From positions 32,001 through 96,000 of the IMG/VR virus record IMGVR_UViG_3300045988_169928: a DNA stretch of 64,000 nucleotides; one strand, written 5' to 3'. Shown piece after piece: positions 21,701-55,720 of the stretch. This stretch comes from a virus. The notes under the pieces were generated by a model. That model searched no databases and was not told where the DNA came from. It saw nothing but the letters and a program-made list of their open reading frames with translations. The position numbers were made by a program, and so were the translations under genes. Numbering within the stretch: the first letter of the stretch is position 1; the number at the start of each line of letters is the position of its first letter.

Positions 21701-22052
21701 CTTGATATTTATCACTGTTGGCTAAGGAATTAATTTGACCAATTCCTTGGGTAGCTTTATCTAAGGCGTCAACCAATTGTTGATAAGCCTGTCGGTTATA
21801 AAGGGTGGTACTATTTAATTCACCCTCAAGGTTATCTTGTTGTTCCTTGAGTTGGTTAAGTGCGTCTACTAGATCACGTTGTAAATTCGTAGACCGCTTA
21901 TTAGAGATTGTATTATTGTTGTTAACCCCGGATTTATAAACCCGGTCAATTTCTTTCTCAAGCTGTTTAACTCGTTTTTGTAAAGGAACAGCAGTCCCAC
22001 TTGCCAGCTTTAATGTTAAATCATATTCAGTCATTATTTCACCACCTATCAA
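18798..22052 (-). CDS. Tape measure protein with a C-terminal lytic transglycosylase (SLT-like) domain.
   Basis: ORF of 1,084 aa with coiled-coil, Q-rich stretches. Gly-rich membrane-like segments (GAMGIIGGSALMGAGDGIINAAIEGGTMATMGAGI and GTIVGIGVGIGTGLLLMSG) are typical of tape measure proteins. The C-terminal IAGESNYD..GLLQMIQGTF..Y is an SLT-type motif. Confidence 0.8.
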   Translation of the reverse strand: MIGGEIMTEYDLTLKLASGTAVPLQKRVKQLEKEIDRVYKSGVNNNNTISNKRSTNLQRDLVDALNQLKEQQDNLEGELNSTTLYNRQAYQQLVDALDKATQGIGQINSLANSDKYQDIQSFNLSSSKVYQSSEYADQQQANDFVNSELGKEVKNIVLRSTTQSNRWNQSVDSGVVTYQKYQEYVSNNQYTREKITDLDSQVTDQRNNIQSQIDELSSRQDQIKGQDSLSVDDVNTLAGIREQLNNLSKSGKYLDELSNRLTQAQEAVTRTGEAIHAKTSIDNVTNNTDTKDTIKVLPSNDSIAGYIHNHHSFLIRQAVRTALIAGPYYVSQGSNARLTNFNNIAGAMYARGGGDNSIVNTLGNNKLGMDLSESSAYLGAYTRNTGKGNLSNKSISRLTNTWGALALTNGASNDTVVNLLGVAGLTNTQGLSASDSERLADAIQNSLTNSHTSAKADSQLKALSSMYQTAATSGKLTTNDQINIAGFQSMMSKTGSSWQGSAGAQAYSGLANVSNNANNQNQQLSLWLDNKNFTGYNQSGNMVALKTAQRAKSDPYLYKTPIGNLYRTARQQTSSKSGAIAVTTQNLVTLSGNSLSYEQANSLVKLYADGKFTRANVKKQTKGKGVNSKKYHKTGTSSIRSQQQAIQSSQIKASQSLDGLRRNLSSFVNSHPKIGAMGIIGGSALMGAGDGIINAAIEGGTMATMGAGIKSVAKSGLSVLSKMPKTGKVGTIVGIGVGIGTGLLLMSGNAKASTKDKDNKAKMTSTQSRTQSRTQNSQAYTPRKKSAKHKSILTSIKDGILHFLSELGVYRVKHKDVNASQKQLIKHLRMWFNEIYKKVKNAAKNGSSDSKTAGDVSNDGATKSKEYWLKKAKEVAKAMGVDISDSQLENLMKLIAGESNYDQTITQQIQDVNSANGDPAKGLLQMIQGTFNKYKVKGHDNILSGVDQLYAFFNIANWASYLYGHAGWSPSGPTRGYANGGLVTHATGGSMTGPIQGMCTSRESAPVSVLDLRALQTRYTTLNQANSVVHRVKRNAPKIKVKIDTSQAVQSRNKNDIIDSIINDTFNAWVNNSQQQIMLDYYSH

Positions 22053-22090
22053 TCGTAATATACAAGAAAAGACCTACTTTTCGGTAGGTC

Positions 22091-23874: not shown

Positions 23875-24849
23875 ATGGAAAATGAAACAGTCGAACGTCT
23901 GAACCCACTCTATGTTCAGTCACAAATGAAACCAATCGAGATTAAAGGAGTTGTCCAATTAATCGAACAACACTCGATTGAAAGTATCTATGAACAGTCC
24001 TACAAGTGTCCCTGTGTCGATCCACAAACCTTACAACCAAGACCAGATTGCCCAATCTGTCATGGGCAGGGCTTTATCTTCATGCACCCTAAATCTTTGG
24101 ATATTGCTTTTGTATCTGACCAAAAACAGTTCAGTCTAAATACCCAAGGAATAGATCAAAATGGGGCAACTTTGGCAACTCCTCAAATTACTATTAACCA
24201 AGTTGAGCAAGGAATTAAACCCGGAGATCGTATTACAGTCCCCGGTTGGACTACTACTGAAAACTATATCTTCAACGTAGACCAGCAACGATTGAATAAT
24301 GGTATCTATTTACCATATAAAGTACAATCCATTAATGAAGCCTATGCCATTTCAGGTGGTAGTTTATCCCGGTTAAAAGAGGGTGATCTAACCCTTGATG
24401 GTGACTTCTTAAAAGTAACCAACGATCAACTATTGAATAGCACTATCTCCCTAAGCCTAGAGGTAGTTAAACGTTTCTATGTAGTTAGCCTTGATAAGGA
24501 ATTACGTTACCAGAAATACTTAAACCTAGCTCAAAAGTTGTGGGCGCTTGGTAATGGTACTGGCGAAATCAGCAGTGATGAAACTGATGATTATACGACC
24601 CTTAATAGTTACCTTAGTAACCAACAGGCTATGCAAATGGATAAGGTTAAATTTCCACAAGTTCAAAAACGAGATGGGAAGCTAATTGATACTGGCAAGA
24701 AACAAATCTACCGTTTGCCACCCCAGTTAAGATTAAAGCGGGAAAACTTATATTTCTCAAATATTAATCTTACTAATAAGGAAAGCAATGGTAATACAGC
24801 TATTACTGACCCACGGGTTACTGAAATGAATGACTTCTTAGGTGATTAA
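23875..24849 (+). CDS. Hypothetical protein with a CxC..CxxC zinc-ribbon motif.
   Basis: ORF of 324 aa containing KCPCVDPQ..PDCPICHG. Confidence 0.4.
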   Translation: MENETVERLNPLYVQSQMKPIEIKGVVQLIEQHSIESIYEQSYKCPCVDPQTLQPRPDCPICHGQGFIFMHPKSLDIAFVSDQKQFSLNTQGIDQNGATLATPQITINQVEQGIKPGDRITVPGWTTTENYIFNVDQQRLNNGIYLPYKVQSINEAYAISGGSLSRLKEGDLTLDGDFLKVTNDQLLNSTISLSLEVVKRFYVVSLDKELRYQKYLNLAQKLWALGNGTGEISSDETDDYTTLNSYLSNQQAMQMDKVKFPQVQKRDGKLIDTGKKQIYRLPPQLRLKRENLYFSNINLTNKESNGNTAITDPRVTEMNDFLGD

Positions 24850-24851
24850 TC

Positions 24852-25565
24852 ATGGCTAGTATTGGTAACTTAATCGGGCGTGAAGGTATTAACGCTTTAA
24901 AGAAATACCTTGAAGATGATATTAGTAAAGAAAAATATGTTAATTCATATGCTAAAGGGTTACAAAAGCAACTAGAACAAACTTTTGGTAAACAAGCAAT
25001 TAAACTTAGCACTAATGGTTTGAAGGTTGCCTATAAAATAATTGAAGATACTAGTACCAATGAACAAATTAGGTTCATTGATCTAAAGCCATACTTCATG
25101 CAGTCACCCAAAGCTAAGCCAACCAAAGATGGTGGCTGGTATCTAAAGATTCCAGTTGGTGGTTTCCAATCCACTACCAAAATGCGAATGGCCTATGGAC
25201 GGTCACTGTGGGACGATATTAGCCACTTAAACTTTGGGGAAACTGGTGGCCAGAATGCTAATATTGAACGCTTTAAGAAAGTCCTTAATAGTTCTGGTGA
25301 AGGCGAGGGGGTACTAGCTTACCAATGGAAGTCCACCAACATTACCCGTATTCAATCAGGTGGTGGTAAGTATGGACACTACATTACTTTCAGAACCGTG
25401 TCCAATAAGTCCGACCCTATGAGTTGGGTTGTGGGGCGTAATGCTATGCAACAACAAGTCAACGCCCGGTCTTTTGACCCTCAAAAGGCTAAAATAATAT
25501 CTAATATCATTCGTGAAGCCATTATTAGAAACATTGAACAGTACAACCAAAAGGAGGATATGTAA
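24852..25565 (+). CDS. Hypothetical protein.
   Basis: ORF of 237 aa, tightly coupled to its neighbours. Confidence 0.4.
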   Translation: MASIGNLIGREGINALKKYLEDDISKEKYVNSYAKGLQKQLEQTFGKQAIKLSTNGLKVAYKIIEDTSTNEQIRFIDLKPYFMQSPKAKPTKDGGWYLKIPVGGFQSTTKMRMAYGRSLWDDISHLNFGETGGQNANIERFKKVLNSSGEGEGVLAYQWKSTNITRIQSGGGKYGHYITFRTVSNKSDPMSWVVGRNAMQQQVNARSFDPQKAKIISNIIREAIIRNIEQYNQKEDM

Positions 25566-31915: not shown

Positions 31916-33753
31916 TCACCAAATTCCTTTACATCTGTCACCCCATACTCACGTTGTAAGTCGGTCTGTTCTCCATTAAATAATTCCGGTGATAAAAACT
32001 GCATTTCAATAGCGTTCCGATGTGCTAACGCATACTCTTTCATCAACTTATCTAGACCCACAAAGGAGTAGACTAATGTTTGCATTGCATGATCAGGCCC
32101 TTTACGTAAAATAACCTTGTCATATACAATCGTATGTGTAGCCGGATCTTCCTTTTCATCAGTTCTAAAGACAACATTTTGGACGTGCTTAATAAAAGTT
32201 TGAATAATTGGGTCTAACCGTGAACCCCGCCAAAACTTAATATCGCCACGCTTAATGTTAGCAATCATCATCATATTCTGTGTGTACTTATCAATAGTAA
32301 CTGTATTATCAGCGTCACTGAAATGTGAATTGTAGTCACCATTGGTTTTAGCTGATCTAACCTTAACAGAGTATACCCTTTCAGAGCCATAGTAAGCTAA
32401 CAACTTTTGATCATATGACCCAGAAAAACCTAAGTCTGGACAAATAATATCAGGGTTGTACTGATTAATCTTTCTAACCACTTGGTTTAAATCTTGTTCA
32501 ATATGTTCAGCACCAGTTGACCGAGGAATAAAAGTAATATCCATAAGTCTAATTTGACCGGTGGTAGTCATTCCAATAGTCACAACAGTATGGTTATGTT
32601 CTCCCCAATCAATCCCGGTTGCTACGAACCGATATTCGTCTGTTCTCTGTTCGGGCTTTTCATAATCAATTTCATTAGAGTATACATCATAATCGTGAAA
32701 GGCCACGGACTTATCTTCATAAGGCATACCTAAAGAATAGTTATAGAAAAACTGTTTTGATGGTGCCCGTAACTCATCTTGCTTGAGCTGATCGGCACTC
32801 ACCCACACGGCGTCCATTTGAGAAATAGAATACCCATGTGTCCGTCCGGCTAGTGGTCGTTCAGTTACCCAATGACCACTATACCAACGATCTAAAGGAC
32901 GCCCACACTTAGCACAGACAAACTGGAAGGTACCGGGTTGTACTGTTAAACCAATATCATCAACCCCATCTGGGTTAATTTGTTGAATATTCTTTTCATA
33001 GTCCAATACTTGTTCATACCCACAATGTGAACATTTGTGGTACCAGCGCCGTTGATCAGATTGTTCAAATAGTTTGTGGATCCCGTATGATGGGACGGTC
33101 GGGGTACTCCATCGGCGCAACATTTTATACTTTGAAGAAGTCATACCTTGCAAAGCTGATTGTTCCGCTAATGGGTTTAGCCTGTCATACTCATCAAGAG
33201 AAACGAAATCCAAGTCCATACCTTCCATAGTAGCCCCGCTAGAACTGGAGCGGAAAACTAAATTTGAATCTCTAATCTTCATCTTCTTTAAAGTCATCGA
33301 TTTAGGATCATAAATCAATGAACGATAATAACCATGATTAAATTCAGGTTGTAAACGTTGGGCTACAAAGTCCTCCAACTGTCGATTAGTTGGGAAAGTA
33401 TACAAAGCATTGACCCGATCAAATGAATGTGTATCTAACCACCAGATTAATTGTTCAATCCCTAATTCAGATAACCCTAACTGCCGGGACTTAATAATAA
33501 TCACATCTTGATAGGTGTCATTTAAAATACCAACTTGAAATGTACGGTGAGCCAAAGCCCGATTAATATTATGGTCAGGAATATTAAAGGTAATCGGATT
33601 TCCCCGAATTGTATGGTTAGCAACAATATAGTTACTAGGCTTACTCATCATCAATACATAATTTAATTGATCCATCGTTACCCGATCATCTGGGGAAAGT
33701 TTAAACATCTTTCTGGTAGCTTTAACCAGTTGAGTACCATTCAATAATAACAC
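31912..33753 (-). CDS. Terminase large subunit.
   Basis: ORF of 613 aa. It has a deviant Walker A (IIIKSRQLGLSELG), a Walker B (LDFVSLDEYDRL) and a C-terminal RNaseH-like nuclease region (GIDWGEHNHTVVTIGM). Confidence 0.85.
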   Translation of the reverse strand: MLLLNGTQLVKATRKMFKLSPDDRVTMDQLNYVLMMSKPSNYIVANHTIRGNPITFNIPDHNINRALAHRTFQVGILNDTYQDVIIIKSRQLGLSELGIEQLIWWLDTHSFDRVNALYTFPTNRQLEDFVAQRLQPEFNHGYYRSLIYDPKSMTLKKMKIRDSNLVFRSSSSGATMEGMDLDFVSLDEYDRLNPLAEQSALQGMTSSKYKMLRRWSTPTVPSYGIHKLFEQSDQRRWYHKCSHCGYEQVLDYEKNIQQINPDGVDDIGLTVQPGTFQFVCAKCGRPLDRWYSGHWVTERPLAGRTHGYSISQMDAVWVSADQLKQDELRAPSKQFFYNYSLGMPYEDKSVAFHDYDVYSNEIDYEKPEQRTDEYRFVATGIDWGEHNHTVVTIGMTTTGQIRLMDITFIPRSTGAEHIEQDLNQVVRKINQYNPDIICPDLGFSGSYDQKLLAYYGSERVYSVKVRSAKTNGDYNSHFSDADNTVTIDKYTQNMMMIANIKRGDIKFWRGSRLDPIIQTFIKHVQNVVFRTDEKEDPATHTIVYDKVILRKGPDHAMQTLVYSFVGLDKLMKEYALAHRNAIEMQFLSPELFNGEQTDLQREYGVTDVKEFGE

Positions 33754-42352: not shown

Positions 42353-42899
42353 AGTTCTTCTACCCCCACTTCATGTACCTTACGTCCGTCTGGGAATACC
42401 ACTGTGAACTCCTCTTTTAATAAGTTCACGCCAAGTAACCTAACTGGCTTACCTTGGTACATTACTGCTTGTCCAGTCTGAAAACAATGTTCTGCTTGAT
42501 TCATTTCCATCTTAACTACTGACCTTCTTATCCGAGAAACAGTGCTACTAACAGTAAACTAACCAGACTACCTACGATCACACTGGTGGTTAGGTTAATT
42601 AAATCATAGTTAAACTGATCTTCTTCTTTCATCTAGTCCATCTTACTTTCTATTTGATTGTCTTTATTATCTACCACTACGTCCTAATTGTCAATACTTT
42701 TTTCTAATCAATGGTAAAAATAAAGTTCTGACTATTTCTATCTTAATAATATTAACCTAGTTAGTTGTTCTAATCTTTATCCCTAATTAATGAATGTTTA
42801 TTCCAGTTTTTCAGTTATATTCATTTCTATTAATTCTTACAGTAAATACTGGTGTTATATCCTTGTTGTAAGAATATTCATTTCTAACTGTTATATGTA

Positions 42900-44050
42900 T
42901 ACTAGCTAACTCCGTCCTAGCTATTCTAACCTAACCTAAGAGTTAAACCAAGAATGTTAACCAAGAAGATAAAACTTTAAGGGTTAAACCTTTAAGAGTT
43001 ATCTCTTTCTGGATAACAGTTTACAAGGAAGTAACCTGTTATCCAAAGTTTAACCTTGACAATATGTGAACACCCGAGTTTGGGTTGAGGGAGTGAAGGG
43101 GAAGGTTAAACTTTTACCTCCTACTCCGGACAGAAAATACAGATTAATACATAGGAATTAACTGATGGAATAGGGGGTAAGAGTTGTAAGTGATTAATAT
43201 TGGGAAACACCGAGTTTGGTATATCGGTCGTTCGGGTATAGTACATCACAGGGGAACCTTTACTATGAAACGTATTTCAACTGGATCAATCTAACAGCTT
43301 TTTAAAACCTCCGGAAGTCCCGGTTTCTGATCATTGGTATTATCACTAATACCTTTAACCATAATTAGTTAAGCAGTGTTCACCATTCCTGATTACTTTT
43401 TAGCTTACCTAGTTCCAACAAGTGTCGGTCTGTTAGCTCCTCCCCTTGGTTACTTGTAACTTAATGTTTAGCATATCAAGACCAAACATCACCAGTTACA
43501 AGACCGTTAGGGAACTTCCCTACCAGCCGTGCCTTATAGTAGCACTCACTAATACTAAAGCTACGGCCCTAGGTTTTAATTGGTTCCCCCATGAATCAGG
43601 CTAATTTGTAGCTTCGCATGAATTTTATAGTTAGGCTCATGACACCATCTCAATCGGTTTTAAGACCCTTATTCCTCTCTGGCAACCTAGTAGCAAGTCA
43701 TATGCTATTCAGTTGTGATAGTCCAGTCTTGGATATAGAACCCGGAACTTGCTTGATTTATAGTTCCCAAACCTGTAATTGTAACGCGCCTCATGAGACC
43801 TTGCCTTGTGGGGGGCGTTCACCTCGTTATCCCATTGCCTAATCAAGTAGGCTTAACTCAAACGGTGAAGTTGATATTTAACTGTAAGATACTAGGACAC
43901 ACGGTTTTGCCCTTATCCTAGTAGGGTACTCGTAGCTATTTCAACGGGTATTGAACGTTCTACTCATACTCACCAATCTCTTGGTTTTAATTTAACCCTA
44001 GTATATCACAACCAACAATAGAGGCAAGGGATTTGCCTAAATTTATCAAA
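42900..44050. ncRNA. Candidate large structured ('ornate') non-coding RNA of the GOLLD/ROOL class. Strand and exact ends are undetermined.
   Basis: About 1.4 kb with no plausible CDS between divergent operons (42650..44067). It is GC-richer than its flanks and dense in nested inverted repeats, for example GGTTAAACCTTT..GGATAACAG[16 nt]CTGTTATCC..AAAGTTTAACC at 42982-43056. CCGAGTTTGG is repeated at about 43075 and 43211. It lies about 1 kb upstream of two tRNA genes. Confidence 0.4.
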
Positions 44051-45179: not shown

Positions 45180-45252
45180 GCTAATTTAGCTCAATTGGCA
45201 GAGCGCCTGCCTTGTAAGCAGGAGGCTACAAGTTCGATTCTTGTAATTAGCA
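45180..45252 (+). tRNA. tRNA-Thr (anticodon TGT).
   Basis: I folded the cloverleaf by hand. The acceptor is GCTAATT/AATTAGC with discriminator A. The D arm is GCTC-AATTGGCA-GAGC. The anticodon arm is CCTGC-CTTGTAA-GCAGG. The T arm is ACAAG-TTCGATT-CTTGT. Confidence 0.85.
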
Positions 45253-45316
45253 TTGTTGGCCATTTCTAACTTTCTCTTTTTTATCAATTCCCACTAGATC
45301 TTGTGGCCAACATTTT

Positions 45317-45405
45317 GGAGAATTACCCAAGTTGGTTGAAGGGGCACCCCTGCTAAGGGTGTAGGCCGGGAAACTGGTGCGAGAGTTCGAATCTCTCATT
45401 CTCCG
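45317..45405 (+). tRNA. tRNA-Ser (anticodon GCT), a class II tRNA with a long variable arm.
   Basis: The acceptor is GGAGAAT/ATTCTCC with discriminator G. The anticodon arm is CACCC-CTGCTAA-GGGTG. The variable arm is TAGGCCGGGAAACTGGTGC. The T arm is GAGAG-TTCGAAT-CTCTC. Confidence 0.85.
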
Positions 45406-45510
45406 TTGCAACATCAACATATTGTTGAACCGTTGCAAACCTGACCGATATTTGATAATTTTTAGCCCGTAAAAATTTTGCAGTCGCTATTAGTTCAGGT
45501 TGTTTAAGTG

Positions 45511-48953: not shown

Positions 48954-48970
48954 TCGAATAATCACTAAAA

Positions 48971-49006
48971 GCCCTTAGAAACGATTCTAGGGGCTTTCTT
49001 TTTTAT
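48971..49006 (+). terminator. Rho-independent terminator.
   Basis: GCCCTTAGAA-acga-TTCTAGGGGC followed by TTTCTTTTTT. Confidence 0.7.
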
Positions 49007-49099
49007 AAAATAAAATGTATCTTTTTTTGTATTTGGTGTTTCAAAAAAATATAAATGTGATATAATAAAGTCATCAACAAATGAAAGAAGGGATTAAAA

Positions 49100-49294
49100 T
49101 TGAAGCAAGAAGATATGACAGAGTTAGATAAGGCTAAGGCTGTTATCGTTGACAAGAATAATAGCTTTGCCAAATTAAGAGAAGTGGCCGGTGGTTCTAT
49201 TTCACGTCTTAATGTCTACCGTCATAACCCTGAAAAGTTAAGAACAGCAAGGTGGATTGTTGTTCACAATCTAGCTAGTCTGTATCATGAATAG
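49100..49294 (+). CDS. Small protein, possibly DNA-binding.
   Basis: ORF of 64 aa with a TTG or ATG start. It follows a promoter with an extended -10 (TGaTATAAT at about 49060-49068) and precedes the antirepressor gene. Confidence 0.4.
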   Translation: MKQEDMTELDKAKAVIVDKNNSFAKLREVAGGSISRLNVYRHNPEKLRTARWIVVHNLASLYHE

Positions 49295-49305
49295 AAGGAA
49301 TAAAC

Positions 49306-50118
49306 ATGGAAAACAAATTACAACTATTTGATTTCAAAGGGCAACAAGTCCGCACAGTGATCATTGACAATGAGCCTTACTTCGTTGGTAAGGACGTTGC
49401 AATGATTCTTGGATATAAAGATTTAAGCCGTGCTCTTAATCAGCACGTAGAAAAAGAAAGCCGCAAGTCCTTGTCCCTCAAGGCTTCGGGCGATTCGTAC
49501 CCTAGCCTATGGGAAGGCAAAAACGATTTTTCAAATAAGATAGTAATTAATGAGTCGGGAGTTTATGATTTGATTTTTAATTCCCAATTACCGAAAGCTC
49601 ATGAGTTCAAACACTGGGTCACTAGCGAAGTCCTCCCATCAATTCGCAAGCACGGTGCCTATTTAACGCCAGACAAGATTGAGGAAGTCTTGTTGAACCC
49701 AGATACTTTGATTAAACTTGCAACAGAACTCAAGAAAGAACGTGAAGGGCGTGTGTTGGCTGAACAAAAAATCCAACAGGATCGTCCAAAAGTCTTATTC
49801 GCTGACGCAGTATCAGCAAGTGACACGCCTATTCTAATTGGTGAGTTAACAAAGATCTTAAAGCAAAATGGGATTGAGATTGGACAGAACCGATTGTTTG
49901 TTTGGTTAAGGAGTAAAGGCTACCTAATCTCACGGAATGGTACAGACTACAATACACCAACACAGAAAAGCATGGAATTAGGTCTATTTAAGATTAAAGA
50001 ACGCACCCGTGTTTCTAGTGACGGTAGTGTTAAGATCACTAAGACGTCAATGGTAACGGGTAAAGGTCAGCAATACTTTGTTAATAAGTTTTTAGGCGAG
50101 AAATATAGTATCAAGTAA
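49306..50118 (+). CDS. Antirepressor (Ant) with Bro-N and KilA-C domains.
   Basis: ORF of 270 aa. The N-terminus FDFKGQQVRTVIIDNEPYFVGKDVAMILGY is a Bro-N motif. The C-terminus resembles KilA-C (ILIGELTKIL...FVWLRSKGYLI). Confidence 0.7.
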   Translation: MENKLQLFDFKGQQVRTVIIDNEPYFVGKDVAMILGYKDLSRALNQHVEKESRKSLSLKASGDSYPSLWEGKNDFSNKIVINESGVYDLIFNSQLPKAHEFKHWVTSEVLPSIRKHGAYLTPDKIEEVLLNPDTLIKLATELKKEREGRVLAEQKIQQDRPKVLFADAVSASDTPILIGELTKILKQNGIEIGQNRLFVWLRSKGYLISRNGTDYNTPTQKSMELGLFKIKERTRVSSDGSVKITKTSMVTGKGQQYFVNKFLGEKYSIK

Positions 50119-50130
50119 AGGAGTTTTACA

Positions 50131-50880
50131 ATGAAATATAAAGAATTTATTCAAGCAGTTGATTCATTAACTAATGAGGCTTTAGTAGCAAACAAGGAGG
50201 CTATTCCTTGGAAGGTCGATATTGATGATCAAGATGTTAAAGTAGTTAATCAAAAGACGGGTCAGCCATTGCTTAAAATCAGTAAACATACTTATGGTAC
50301 TATGCTAGTATATCAACTAACTGATTCAACAGCAGTTAGTATCTTTGAGGAGGCGGTTTTGCTTAATGAAACTCCTCTAGATGAACGTGATGAAGTTGTT
50401 AATTACAATCCCTTACATGATTCCATTAACTTTTTGAAGGAAGTATCTAGCCAACTTACTCGAGGGTTGACCCAACAAAACTGGAACTCAAATGGGGAAG
50501 AATATCGGACGTTTTACTTTGTATGTTTCAAGTTGTGGGCAACCAAAGAATTTGTAACAGTTAATGGCCCACACTTACAAGGGTCTTTATCATTAAAATG
50601 TAAGTCTACGGACACTTTTGAGGATAAGATTAAGAGTTTGATTCATATGGCTAACATATTCAAAGACGCCTTATCTTTGCGTGAAGAAACCATTAATTCG
50701 GCTTTGGAAGTTCTAGATGACCATAAAGATGATCCATCACTCCAGTTTAGCATGGGTAGGATTATCATTAATAACAAGCATATTATTATCTCTACTGATT
50801 CTGGTGCCTACTTCATGTGGACAAATAAGCCAACCTATTTTGGATCACAAAAAAAGTTCCACGAAATCCTTGACGACTAA
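50131..50880 (+). CDS. Hypothetical protein.
   Basis: ORF of 249 aa. Confidence 0.45.
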   Translation: MKYKEFIQAVDSLTNEALVANKEAIPWKVDIDDQDVKVVNQKTGQPLLKISKHTYGTMLVYQLTDSTAVSIFEEAVLLNETPLDERDEVVNYNPLHDSINFLKEVSSQLTRGLTQQNWNSNGEEYRTFYFVCFKLWATKEFVTVNGPHLQGSLSLKCKSTDTFEDKIKSLIHMANIFKDALSLREETINSALEVLDDHKDDPSLQFSMGRIIINNKHIIISTDSGAYFMWTNKPTYFGSQKKFHEILDD

Positions 50881-50899
50881 ACTTTAGTATGCTATTATA

Positions 50900-51480
50900 A
50901 TAAATGTAAACTTGAAGTGGGTGAATAAGGGTCTTGCAAACCCGCCCCTCATGATTACCTGTAAAGCACCTAAGACGTGGTTAAATGGTAGCTTAACTAT
51001 TTCAATTGGTAACAGGTAATAGTGTTACCAACTAGAGAAAAAAATCTAGGGTGGTGGTAATCATGGAAATTAGCTTGAGGATTTAGGGTAGCCACGGACT
51101 GGCTAACCACAATACTATACCCGTAGTTAAATCGCCTTGAACAAGCGAATGACCCAAAGCGGGAGGTCTCATTAAGGTAGTTACCGATGAAGCGTGGTAA
51201 CACGTGTATAACAGTCCAGTGGTGTATGAGTAGCTAACGGTACATAAACAGCAAATTTATGTATATTACAATCTATGCTTACGCTTAGTGAAAGTTGGTG
51301 GGTACCGATCCCAGCCCAGCCTTGGCCATTTGCTATCAGAGCTGTTTGTTGACGAATAAATAGTAAGCCTGATAGGTGCTGTCACCTAATAAAGTCTGTT
51401 TGCTGATATTCCACGTAAACCAATACGCAAGTTTATAAAAGAAGCTCACTACCCAATATGGGTGGTGGGCTTTTATTGTA
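50900..51480. ncRNA. Second candidate structured non-coding RNA of about 0.6 kb, possibly ROOL/GOLLD-class.
   Basis: A 615-nt gap (50881..51495) in an otherwise tightly packed plus-strand operon. It is GC-richer than its flanks and has multiple stems, for example TTGGTAACA-ggtaatag-TGTTACCAA at about 51004-51029 and GTTACC-gatgaagcgt-GGTAAC at about 51180-51202. Confidence 0.35.
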
Positions 51481-51495
51481 TATTACAATTGATAG

Positions 51496-52428
51496 GTGGT
51501 GAAAAGAATGTCTTTAAAAGATATACAAGATTATTTTACAATTGTAGATGACGCAGGTAGCTTACAGAATTATACAGGCAACCCAGATTATGCGTTAGAT
51601 GATAAATGGAAGAATATCAGCCTAGATGATTTAGGGTTAAATAAAGATATTATTCAACAGGAATTACTTGGTTTAGGGAGGGATTTAGTAGACCCAGTAA
51701 CTGGTGAATCCTATTCAGATGAGTTCTATCAGAATATGTTAATTCGGGCAGTCTCACAAACAGAGAAGAAGTTTGACTTGGCAATTCTTCCTCGGTTACA
51801 AGTTGATCGGCTAGACTATCACCGGAATGATTTTAATGCGTTTGCTTATATGAATACAACTTTACGGCCAATTTTGACGGTAAAAGATTTAACATTGTAC
51901 TATAACAATCAAACGATTATGCGAGTTCCTATGGAATGGGTCAAGGTTAATAATCGTTCGGGTCAGATTCAGGTTTCTCCTAGTATCTTAATGCAAGGGT
52001 TAAATACAACCATTAACCCGACTATCTACCCAATCCTTTCTAACCCGTATGGTATGGCTCCAACACCATTCCAACAGATTGAAGTAAGTCCTCAAATGCT
52101 AGGGGTAACATCTGTTGTGGGTATGATGCCGGCTAGTGATCGAATTGGTGAGTTCCATGACTATCAGATTCAGCCAGACGTCCAATCCTATGTGGCTAAA
52201 CTAGCCGCAATTGAAATTCTAGAAAAGTGGGGTCGTAACATTATCGGGGCTGGGATTGCTTCCTATAATGTTTCGATGGACGGAATTTCAACGGGAATGA
52301 ACACCACAGCAAGTGCCGAAAATACGGCTACCACGGCTGATATTAAGTTACTACAATCAGATATGAAATCTTTAGCAGACGGTATCAAAGCATACTATGG
52401 TAACCCAGAAATTGGTTTTTACAATTAA
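51496..52428 (+). CDS. Hypothetical, probably structural, protein. Its last 18-22 codons are duplicated, with synonymous recoding, at the end of the next ORF.
   Basis: ORF of 310 aa (the probable start is the ATG at 51508, with the RBS AGGTGGTGAAAAG). The C-terminus is ..DMKSLADGIKAYYGNPEIGFYN. Confidence 0.55.
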   Translation: MVKRMSLKDIQDYFTIVDDAGSLQNYTGNPDYALDDKWKNISLDDLGLNKDIIQQELLGLGRDLVDPVTGESYSDEFYQNMLIRAVSQTEKKFDLAILPRLQVDRLDYHRNDFNAFAYMNTTLRPILTVKDLTLYYNNQTIMRVPMEWVKVNNRSGQIQVSPSILMQGLNTTINPTIYPILSNPYGMAPTPFQQIEVSPQMLGVTSVVGMMPASDRIGEFHDYQIQPDVQSYVAKLAAIEILEKWGRNIIGAGIASYNVSMDGISTGMNTTASAENTATTADIKLLQSDMKSLADGIKAYYGNPEIGFYN

Positions 52429-52489
52429 AGCTATTGATAAATAAAACAAACTTCTGTATTATTGATGATGTAGATACGGGGGGTTTATT

Positions 52490-53428
52490 ATGGTAAAACG
52501 TAAAACAGATAAACAATTTAAACAAGAGGTCTTTGACCTAGTAGGTAATGAATATACATTCTTAGATACTTATGTTAATACTATGACTAAGATAAGAGTT
52601 AAACATAATAAATGTGGGAATACCTACGAGGTAACACCTGATAATTTTCTACATGGCAATCGTTGTTCATATTGTGCAGGTAATGCTAGGAAAACAGATA
52701 AACAATTTAAACAAGAAGTATTTGACCTAGTAGGTAGTGAATACACATTTTTAGATAAATATGTTAATAGTCAAACCAAGTTAAGGGTTAAGCATAATAA
52801 TTGTGGAAATGTTTACAGGGTTATCCCCAATAATTTTCTTAGGGGTAAGCGTTGTTCATATTGTTATGGTAATACTAAGAAAACAGATAAACAATTTAAA
52901 CAAGAAGTCTTTGACCTAGTAGGTAATGAGTATACATTCTTAGATCCTTATGTTAGTAACGAGACTAAGATAAGAGTTAAACATAATAAATGTGGAAATG
53001 TATATAAGGTAATACCCACTAATTTTCTTAGGGGTAAGCGTTGTCCTTTTTGCACCGACACCCCTAAAGGTGAACTTATTATCATTAAAATTTTAGATAA
53101 GCTAGGTATTAATTATGATTACCAGAAAACGTTTGATGATCTGAAAGATGATAGGCTTTTATCCTATGATTTCTATCTTCCAGATCAGAATATCCTAATT
53201 GAGTACCAAGGACTACAACATTACCAACCAATTGATTACTTTGGTGGAGAAACTAAGTTTAAAATCCAACAGAAACATGACCAGATGAAGTTGAATTATG
53301 CTAAAAAACATGGATACAATTTAATCTTAGTTCCATACACAGTAGATACTTTACCTAAGATTATGAAGGATCTGGCCAATGGTATTAAGGCTTACTATGG
53401 AAATCCAGAGGTTGGTTTCTACAACTAA
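52490..53428 (+). CDS. Putative homing endonuclease: three tandem zinc-ribbon repeats, a PD-(D/E)XK domain (DUF559/Vsr-like), and a C-terminal 22 aa that copies the upstream gene's C-terminus.
   Basis: ORF of 312 aa with three ~62-aa repeats (KTDKQFKQEVFDLVG.EYTFLD.YV...TK.RVKHN.CGN.Y.V.P.NFL.G.RC.YC). YDFYLPDQNILIEYQGLQHY matches the DUF559 motif. The C-terminus IMKDLANGIKAYYGNPEVGFYN is a protein-level duplicate of the upstream gene's end but with divergent codons. Confidence 0.55.
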   Translation: MVKRKTDKQFKQEVFDLVGNEYTFLDTYVNTMTKIRVKHNKCGNTYEVTPDNFLHGNRCSYCAGNARKTDKQFKQEVFDLVGSEYTFLDKYVNSQTKLRVKHNNCGNVYRVIPNNFLRGKRCSYCYGNTKKTDKQFKQEVFDLVGNEYTFLDPYVSNETKIRVKHNKCGNVYKVIPTNFLRGKRCPFCTDTPKGELIIIKILDKLGINYDYQKTFDDLKDDRLLSYDFYLPDQNILIEYQGLQHYQPIDYFGGETKFKIQQKHDQMKLNYAKKHGYNLILVPYTVDTLPKIMKDLANGIKAYYGNPEVGFYN

Positions 53429-55374: not shown

Positions 55375-55382
55375 TTTTAGGG

Positions 55383-55507
55383 TTGACATATTGTAATAGT
55401 ATGTTATGATTAAGTTAATACTCCATATATAGTTTTGATGTCAGTCAAAGGACATTCCTAGTGGAAAGGCTGTCTTGTATTAGTTTACAAGGTGGTCTTT
55501 TTATTTT
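55383..55507 (+). ncRNA. Promoter P1 plus a ~90-nt transcript ending at terminator T1; candidate small RNA 1.
   Basis: TTGACA (55383-55388), a 16-nt spacer, then TATGAT (55405-55410). The terminator is CTTGTA-ttagtt-TACAAG followed by gtggtcTTTTTATTTT (55474-55507). There is no ORF. Confidence 0.45.
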
Positions 55508-55518
55508 AGAACAATCTA

Positions 55519-55700
55519 TTGACATTACCATATCAAAATGATACTATATAGTTACATTAATTTAGTCGTTAAGTTAATGTTGGTTAAGTTTACTAACCCC
55601 TTGGTAGCAAAGTATTGTGACGAGACTTGTGCGGTAGGTAGCTTGACATTATTCAGTGCAAAGGCTGTCTTGTATTGGTTTACAGGACAGTTTTTATTTT
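55519..55700 (+). ncRNA. Promoter P2 plus a ~145-nt transcript ending at terminator T2; candidate small RNA 2.
   Basis: TTGACA (55519-55524), a 17-nt spacer, then TACTAT (55542-55547). The terminator is CTGTCTTGTA-ttggt-TACAGGACAG followed by TTTTTATTTT (55665-55700). The 3' ~45 nt repeat the 3' end of sRNA 1. Confidence 0.45.
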
Positions 55701-55720
55701 AGATTTTTTAACAAAAAGTA

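Follow-up and report, generated by a model that had tools for sequence, protein, structure and literature searches.

A probable ROOL RNA gene of reduced type in an LfeInf-like Herelleviridae phage

Introduction

Few RNAs of bacteria and phages are as large and elaborate as ROOL RNAs, which form protein-free cages larger than the ribosome; in the solved structures a linker segment lies disordered inside the cage. Here we describe a probable member of this class in a 64-kb stretch of viral DNA, positions 32,001 to 96,000 of IMG/VR record IMGVR_UViG_3300045988_169928 (the whole stretch is hereafter called the window, and is numbered from its first letter). The candidate occupies a 0.6-kb gap at 50881-51495, between a gene of 249 amino acids (aa) and a 310-aa tail gene, in which a first-pass annotation made from the letters alone had suspected either a noncoding RNA (ncRNA) or a degenerate intron.

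The ROOL of Ligilactobacillus salivarius megaplasmids ('Lsa ROOL') is the long noncoding RNA (lncRNA) at LSL_1885 described by Cousin et al. 2017 (PMC5643018). It is reported to be as abundant as 16S rRNA, stable, dispensable in culture and transcribed as a separate unit (PMC5643018). Its cage, solved by cryo-electron microscopy (cryo-EM; PDB 9J6Y, as listed in PMC12990946), is a hexamer, which has been attributed to an ultrashort apical helix (PMC12990946). The ROOLs of Enterococcus faecalis and env-120 form octameric cages (PMC12990946; PMC12286853). GOLLD, another large ornate RNA found in phages and Lactobacillales, also makes RNA-only cages, but is unrelated to the present RNA in sequence and fold. 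The lncRNAs of the Staphylococcus phages K and vB_SauM-515A1 are long, highly expressed and found in Herelleviridae, the phage family to which the window belongs; unlike the candidate described here they adjoin tRNA genes, and a review likens them to GOLLD and ROOL (PMC10383478).

Results

Match of the gap to the ROOL family

The gap runs exactly from the stop of the 249-aa open reading frame (ORF; 50131-50880) to GTG 51496 of the 310-aa ORF, although the true start of the latter is likely to be ATG 51508, served by the ribosome-binding site (RBS) AGGTGGTG at 51494-51501. The ORFs inside it are all short (35-68 aa) and none matched a PHROG family at E<=0.1. The gap first noted from the sequence is real. 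The whole window was compared with Rfam 15 at the gathering threshold and, permissively, at E<=1 for the 1-kb region around the gap and E<=0.1 for the window. The sole non-tRNA match was to ROOL (RF03087), on the plus strand only, at 50893-51438; with 124.6 bits, above the gathering score of 99.1 (E 3e-25 for 64 kb), the match covered the model from position 1 to 574 of 574. The first-pass proposal of a structured ncRNA of ROOL size on this strand is therefore well supported by a model that spans the gap above its gathering score. The permissive scans returned nothing credible beyond ROOL and two tRNAs, and the GOLLD model had no match in the window at E<=0.1. We conclude with high confidence that the gap is a stand-alone ROOL RNA gene, on the plus strand of a virulent phage of Limosilactobacillus fermentum that belongs to the Herelleviridae and resembles Lactobacillus phage LfeInf. 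The RNA is a divergent, unannotated member of an already known class, and as such of modest interest.

Base pairing gave a second view of the match. The alignment to the model holds 159 consensus pairs, among which 118 are canonical, 20 deleted and 21 mismatched. Canonical pairs thus make up 118/139 of those present, compared with 46-59 when the 3′ partners were slid by 1-3 bases, although fitting the alignment to the structure biases this count towards canonical pairs. Relative to the consensus pair, 63 pairs were changed on both sides.

The numerous stems remarked on earlier were also evident without the model: the whole plus strand of the gap folded with a z-score of -3.77 and none of 100 shuffles was as stable (z -2.26 for the minus strand). 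One stem quoted near 51004-51029 was found two bases off, as TTGGTAACA/TGTTACCAA at 51006-51014/51023-51031 (-10.7 kcal/mol, z -3.2), and is helix P3b of the ROOL fold. A second, GTTACC/GGTAAC, is present at 51180-85/51196-201 but is no helix of that fold, its arms being parts of a P10 pseudoknot strand and of hairpin P9. The motif CCAGCCCAGCC, quoted in the same annotation, lies at 51311-51321. The description of the gap as richer in GC than its surroundings held locally, with 300-nucleotide (nt) windows in the gap peaking at 0.42-0.447 and flanks at ~0.35 (0.402 for the gap against a window mean of 0.386); GC reaches 0.50 in part of the DNA polymerase gene, so the composition of the gap is not exceptional.

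Fold of the RNA

The sequence fits the ROOL architecture, with helices P1-P6, P8-P12 and P17/18, two covariation-supported pseudoknots and a free linker. The parts referred to below are as follows (L078 is a metagenomic relative and L186 the L. salivarius sequence, both described further on).

50893-51438, plus strand: ROOL RNA, Rfam model positions 1-574; the folded RNA is probably 50905-51437
50905-50914, plus strand: 5′ strand of helix P1, UGUAAACUUG, pairing with CAAGUUUAUA at 51428-51437 (10 base pairs (bp), one G-U)
51109-51119, plus strand: 11-nt junction ACAAUACUAUA in place of the apical hairpin P7 (model 220-232 deleted)
51138-51140, plus strand: UGA in loop L8, with a weak candidate partner UCA at 51169-51171 in J8/6 (counterpart of bridge B4)
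51182-51186, plus strand: UACCG, 5′ strand of the P10 pseudoknot, pairing with CGGUA at 51238-51242 (J6/9 with the 5′ part of the P11 loop)
51243-51276, plus strand: variable linker (P11 loop), with 8/34 differences from LfeInf and wholly different in L078
51277-51282, plus strand: GCUUAC, 5′ strand of the second pseudoknot (3′ linker flank), pairing with GUAAGC at 51363-51368 in J17/18
51407-51429, plus strand: 23-nt block UAUUCCACGUAAACCAAUACGCA, immediately before the 3′ strand of P1; the L. salivarius ROOL has the same 23 nt (L186, 2501-2523)

Helix P1, which closes the whole molecule, was read from the sequence, and the same ends are paired in the minimum free energy fold; the model's own P1, which has a longer register, is only 8/16 paired. 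The consensus hairpins P7, P15 and P19 are absent (model positions 220-232, 450-459 and 543-554 deleted). P7 follows the numbering of Kretsch et al., the same apical hairpin being P10 in another numbering, and it is 'not always conserved' among ROOLs (PMC12286853). Since the accepted L. salivarius ROOL lacks the same three hairpins, none of them is essential to membership of the class.

Covariance models cannot score pseudoknots, so that these provide a test separate from the model score. The covariation table of Kretsch et al. for env-120 contains two non-nested helices, 349-352:406-409 and 458-461:578-581 (PMC12286853). The first (CCUC:GAGG, significant covariation; PMC12286853) is the equivalent of P10, whose strands in the window RNA are in register with the Rfam consensus uGcc:Ggca. 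Among 58 distinct pattern-matching sequences the P10 site was 4/4 complementary in 45, in 13 combinations, against 11/58 in a control with the 5′ strand reversed; within this set ACCG:CGGU was restricted to the window lineage. The second (UCUG:CAGA, covarying; PMC12286853) is represented in the window by six Watson-Crick pairs, where the consensus has UCUGA:UCAGA and L. salivarius has GCGCAU:AUGUGC. L078 has GCUUAU at this site, which would still pair via G-U, and a rough estimate puts the chance of a perfect 6-bp match in the two short sequence windows at ~0.01. In these comparisons both pseudoknots are kept through compensatory changes.

Comparison with other ROOLs

An exact match to the 23-nt block UAUUCCACGUAAACCAAUACGCA led to the lncRNA locus of the L. 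salivarius megaplasmid, which is flanked by genes for a PTS IIC protein and an HTH regulator. The two RNAs share a low Rfam score (117.9 bits for the Lsa ROOL, 124.6 for the window RNA) and a similar length (536 and 546 nt), and are both missing three hairpins at matching places (model 220-236, 450-460 and 543-554 in the Lsa ROOL). In both, an 11-nt junction (J6/8) replaces the apical helix and the identical block precedes the P1 3′ strand; each is a stand-alone gene that has a terminator-like hairpin behind it and no neighbouring tRNA, called or annotated. At shared model positions, by contrast, identity is only 43.6%, and the sequences of loops L2, L8, L12 and L18 differ; 95 pairs are canonical in both RNAs, with 52 changed on both sides. 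The Lsa ROOL belongs to an L. salivarius megaplasmid and the window RNA to a virulent phage of L. fermentum, and expression and a hexamer have been demonstrated only for the former. The shared absence of hairpins, the short apical junction, the shared pairs and the identical 23-nt block nevertheless lead us to class the window RNA, by sequence, as a reduced 'Lsa-type' ROOL.

The block itself can form a weak mini-hairpin, CGUA-AACCAA-UACG (-1.9 kcal/mol), at the place typical of P19. A search of IMG/VR with the 17-nt core of UAUUCCACGUAAACCAAUACGCA found only LfeInf and three non-ROOL chance matches.

Typical ROOLs (env-120, E. faecalis) share with the window RNA the multi-junction fold, both pseudoknots, the variable P11-loop linker, an association with phages and the motifs UGG..ACAAUA, UGAAG, GUAUAACA, GUAnnAGUAGC and GUGAAAGUUGG. 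They differ in score and length (172-367 bits and 556-594 nt for 14 other ROOLs in viral contigs), in keeping P7, P15 and P19, and in often lying inside tRNA arrays, none of which holds for the window RNA. A tRNA stood within ~150 nt of 7/14 of these viral ROOLs, and none that near to the other seven. A scan of species-representative genomes with the core pattern returned typical ROOLs only, mostly from gut metagenome-assembled genomes (e.g., Phascolarctobacterium), and none from Lactobacillaceae.

Some elements may carry two ROOL copies: two human-gut metagenome contigs each have two core-pattern matches, 7.8 kb apart in L102 (2126-2172 and 9952-9998) and 2.6 kb apart in L139 (2148-2194 and 4772-4818). 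On another viral contig (L030), which has a ROOL within a tRNA array, a type II hammerhead ribozyme was found at 63-131 on the minus strand (58.4 bits).

Substitution pattern among close relatives

The window is a ~95% relative of LfeInf (NC_029058), a virulent phage of L. fermentum (Herelleviridae, Hopescreekvirus) and the only close relative found by DNA search among 50,697 phage records. LfeInf has the same ROOL region at 96.2% identity. A metagenome scan yielded one further relative, the truncated contig L078, which is 93.5% identical and has a completely different linker. The three sequences differ too little to be tested for covariation among themselves. Differences between the window and LfeInf were distributed as follows.

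5′ domain of the RNA: 10/148
Core, 51063-51242: 0/180
Linker, 51243-51276: 8/34
3′ domain of the RNA: 1/162
249-aa gene: 43/750 (94.3% identity)
Tail gene: 25/921 (97.3% identity)

The linker is thus 76.5% identical to that of LfeInf, compared with 100% for the core. Outside the linker there are 11 differences. As mapped by eye, three are stem changes that preserve pairing and one disrupts a pair; the others are in loops or junctions. Such a distribution, read from the alignment, is what one would expect of a structured RNA that is under constraint and has a free linker. It also bears on whether the gap holds one or more small protein genes, either the 68-aa ORF on the minus strand (50997-51203) or ORFs of 35-39 aa elsewhere. 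Such ORFs exist mechanically, but conservation tracks the domains of the RNA rather than reading frames, the model match is on the plus strand, the PHROG search drew a blank as described above and none of the ORFs is annotated in LfeInf; we regard a coding role as scarcely credible.

The LfeInf record (NC_029058 / KP054477) has no feature over the ROOL, at 24705-25309 of that genome, and its two copies disagree on the gene downstream, a 'tail fiber protein' in one and a 'hypothetical protein' in the other.

The gap as an insertion in a variable region

Comparison with relatives indicated that the gap is an indel, a possibility raised in the first-pass annotation, and that the inserted thing is an RNA gene rather than a remnant. 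Homologues of the tail gene (PHROG 772) are numerous and 60-92% identical to it. In five contigs, whose tail proteins are 66-87% identical to that of the window, the gene lies 39-66 nt behind varied upstream genes, in one case the DNA polymerase gene, and across these five loci (67 kb) there was no gap at this place and no ROOL was found. The ROOL is therefore lineage-specific at the tail-gene site. In the window, the interval between polymerase and tail gene holds an anti-repressor-like (Ant) gene, the 249-aa gene and the ROOL, and it is a variable accessory region.

This setting raises the question of whether the match is the decaying relic of a ROOL, in a non-functional spacer or insertion remnant where only a promoter and a terminator matter. 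The low ROOL score and the three missing hairpins would fit such a relic, as would an indel hotspot and the lack of the region from more distant relatives. However, the core and 3′ domain together differ from LfeInf at 1/342 nt, against 43/750 and 25/921 in the neighbouring genes, and the pseudoknots are intact; because of this lower variation than in coding neighbours, and because of the pseudoknots, we prefer an RNA gene. Moreover, the L. salivarius RNA has the same reduced form, and for that RNA high expression and a solved cage have been reported (PMC5643018, PMC12990946). A relic is accordingly very unlikely in our judgement.

The same comparisons bear on the first-pass suggestion of an intron, which would be of group I or group II and either degenerate or a remnant. 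Its appeal lies in the size of the gap and its many stems only. Against it, the permissive scans (E<=1 for the 1-kb region, E<=0.1 for the window) matched no intron family, and the ORFs on either side are unrelated, separate and complete genes rather than two halves of one. In the five relatives the tail gene stands intact directly behind other genes, and the ROOL model explains the whole gap. We consider the probability of an intron negligible and retain the RNA gene as the explanation of the gap.

Several neighbouring features are recorded here in their own right.

49306-50118, plus strand (region 49160-50130): the Ant gene, Bro-N/KilAC anti-repressor-like, absent from LfeInf
52490-53428, plus strand (region 52430-53361): a 312-aa HNH/homing-endonuclease-like gene (PHROG 559) between the tail and tail sheath genes
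42511-43445: a ~0.9-kb ORF-poor region between the leftward and rightward gene blocks, with weak repeats only

At the position of the Ant gene LfeInf has a different, 180-aa gene annotated 'DNA helicase', which makes a second module swap just upstream of the ROOL. The HNH gene is a recent insertion, since it is absent from LfeInf; a similar endonuclease lies 3′ of the tail-gene homologue in contigs L068 and L069. The region at 42511-43445, which may be what the first-pass annotation counted as a first gap, matched nothing in Rfam at E<=0.1 and lies in a block, collinear with LfeInf, that averages ~89% identity. In another phage relative (L067, 517-3949) the family A DNA polymerase is split into two ORFs of 679 and 350 aa, ~340 nt apart, which could be due to an intron, an intein-like interruption or a frameshift.

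A putative transcription unit

The RNA is flanked by the following signals.

50870-50898, plus strand: sigma-70-type promoter, with -35 TTGACG at 50870-75, a 17-nt spacer and the extended -10 TGcTATTAT at 50890-98
51440-51480, plus strand: intrinsic terminator, a 16-bp stem followed by UUUUAUU (-24.8 kcal/mol, z -6.7)
51477-51489, plus strand: 13-mer TGTATATTACAAT, between the terminator and the tail-gene RBS, with an exact second copy in the ROOL linker at 51260-51272

The promoter-like site matches 10/12 consensus positions, with TG before the -10, and its -35 overlaps the end of the 249-aa ORF. Transcription is predicted, by consensus match, to start at ~50904-50907, where helix P1 begins. 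LfeInf and L078 have the same hexamers but substitutions in the spacer. In the terminator the sole difference from LfeInf, 51468 G to A, converts U-G to the better pair U-A. The nearest tRNA genes, tRNA-Thr and tRNA-Ser at 45180-45406, are 5.5 kb upstream. With its own predicted promoter, a strong terminator, no adjacent tRNA and a place in a variable region missing from more distant relatives, the RNA looks like an independent unit rather than a cotranscribed spacer or an intron.

The first-pass annotation had expected an RNA cotranscribed with its neighbours, which the sequence does not favour, given the conserved promoter-like site and the 16-bp terminator; its picture of an otherwise gap-free operon was also too strong, as gaps of ~350 nt occur in the same gene block at 48954-49305 and 55375-55720. 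A true ROOL could nonetheless be transcribed together with the upstream replication genes and processed from a long transcript, the promoter-like site being incidental. All neighbours are on the same strand, and the tRNA genes within ~150 nt of 7/14 viral ROOLs, three of which abut or slightly overlap a tRNA, suggest cotranscription and processing in those cases; promoter scans also give many chance matches (15 found against 8.9 expected in a 2.5-kb region). On the other side, the near-consensus extended -10 promoter puts the start exactly at P1, its hexamers are conserved in three relatives although the spacer has changed, there is no tRNA alongside that could guide processing, and the related L. 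salivarius RNA is reported as a separate transcription unit (PMC5643018). We therefore think processing from a long transcript unlikely and favour a separate unit, with read-through from upstream as a possible addition.

The 13-mer TGTATATTACAAT has just two exact copies in the 64 kb, both with a TTTAT-like stretch in front of them. LfeInf retains it only in part, and the L078 linker lacks it. A role as a phage promoter or -10-like element is possible, e.g., for the tail gene. A copy with one mismatch (22052-22064, minus strand) lies directly upstream of a 1084-aa structural ORF on the minus strand.

Discussion

Some features of the window RNA count against its identification as a ROOL gene with a promoter of its own. 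Its 124.6 bits are the second lowest among the 16 ROOLs that we scored, and highly conserved consensus positions are identical at only 109/191, with 25 deleted. The contact between chains that is best conserved among ROOLs, bridge B4, has as its counterpart a 3-bp candidate, UGA:UCA, that is no better than chance, 3 bp between a 9-nt loop and a 13-nt junction being also expected by chance. Among 67 distinct pattern-matching sequences, L8 and J8/6 can form at least three Watson-Crick pairs in 55 (some of them chance matches), with covarying combinations; typical ROOLs have covarying complements such as GGA:UCC, UGGU:ACCA or UGGCA:UGCCA, L. salivarius has UGAU:AUCA, and L078 loses one pair and gains another. 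Bridge B1 had no clear or convincing counterpart in the window RNA; B1, B5 and B6 of the cryo-EM structures were mapped via local context, with a copy of the env-120 sequence 9 nt short. Loop L18, which makes bridge B6, is the 4-nt GACG, where 5-9 nt with a central GC are usual. The promoter and start site are consensus predictions only. Finally, the usual tRNA neighbourhood is absent, although the phage context is present in that the window is a relative of LfeInf.

If the gap is a ROOL gene, its action can be sketched by analogy with described members of the class. Host RNA polymerase would most likely start at the gene's own extended -10 promoter (50870-50898), giving a transcript of ~535-575 nt that would begin at helix P1 near 50905 and stop at the terminator (51440-51480). 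The RNA would probably accumulate to a high level and self-assemble, protein-free, into a closed, hollow, homo-oligomeric cage. Its lack of an apical helix, shared with the hexameric RNA of L. salivarius, would make a hexamer likelier than an octamer. With a weak B4, no clear counterpart of B1 and an odd L18, oligomerisation and stoichiometry of the window RNA are matters that we infer by analogy. Our best guess at the function, offered with low confidence, is that the cage encloses or sequesters translation-related components of the host during infection.

A broader idea, which we put forward tentatively and think doubtful, is that the reduced Lsa-type ROOL is a mobile, moron-like RNA gene that carries its own promoter and terminator and moves among Lactobacillaceae megaplasmids and virulent phages, and that the 23-nt block, unchanged between two RNAs of otherwise ~44% identity, is a functional site. 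The block might then serve to dock a conserved host factor, say, or to make a contact between cages in place of P19. If this idea were true, the culturable, virulent LfeInf would offer a clean knock-out system for the role of the ROOL cage.

The analysis corrects the public annotation, the LfeInf record being blank at the ROOL locus, and it brings out a 23-nt element that is invariant across the Lsa-type subclass. The reduced form of ROOL, reported as a hexamer and earlier described from L. salivarius megaplasmids, is now also seen in a virulent Herelleviridae phage, with a host of another genus. As the transcription unit appears simple and the lineage has a cultured representative in LfeInf, deletion and complementation of such a ROOL should be feasible.

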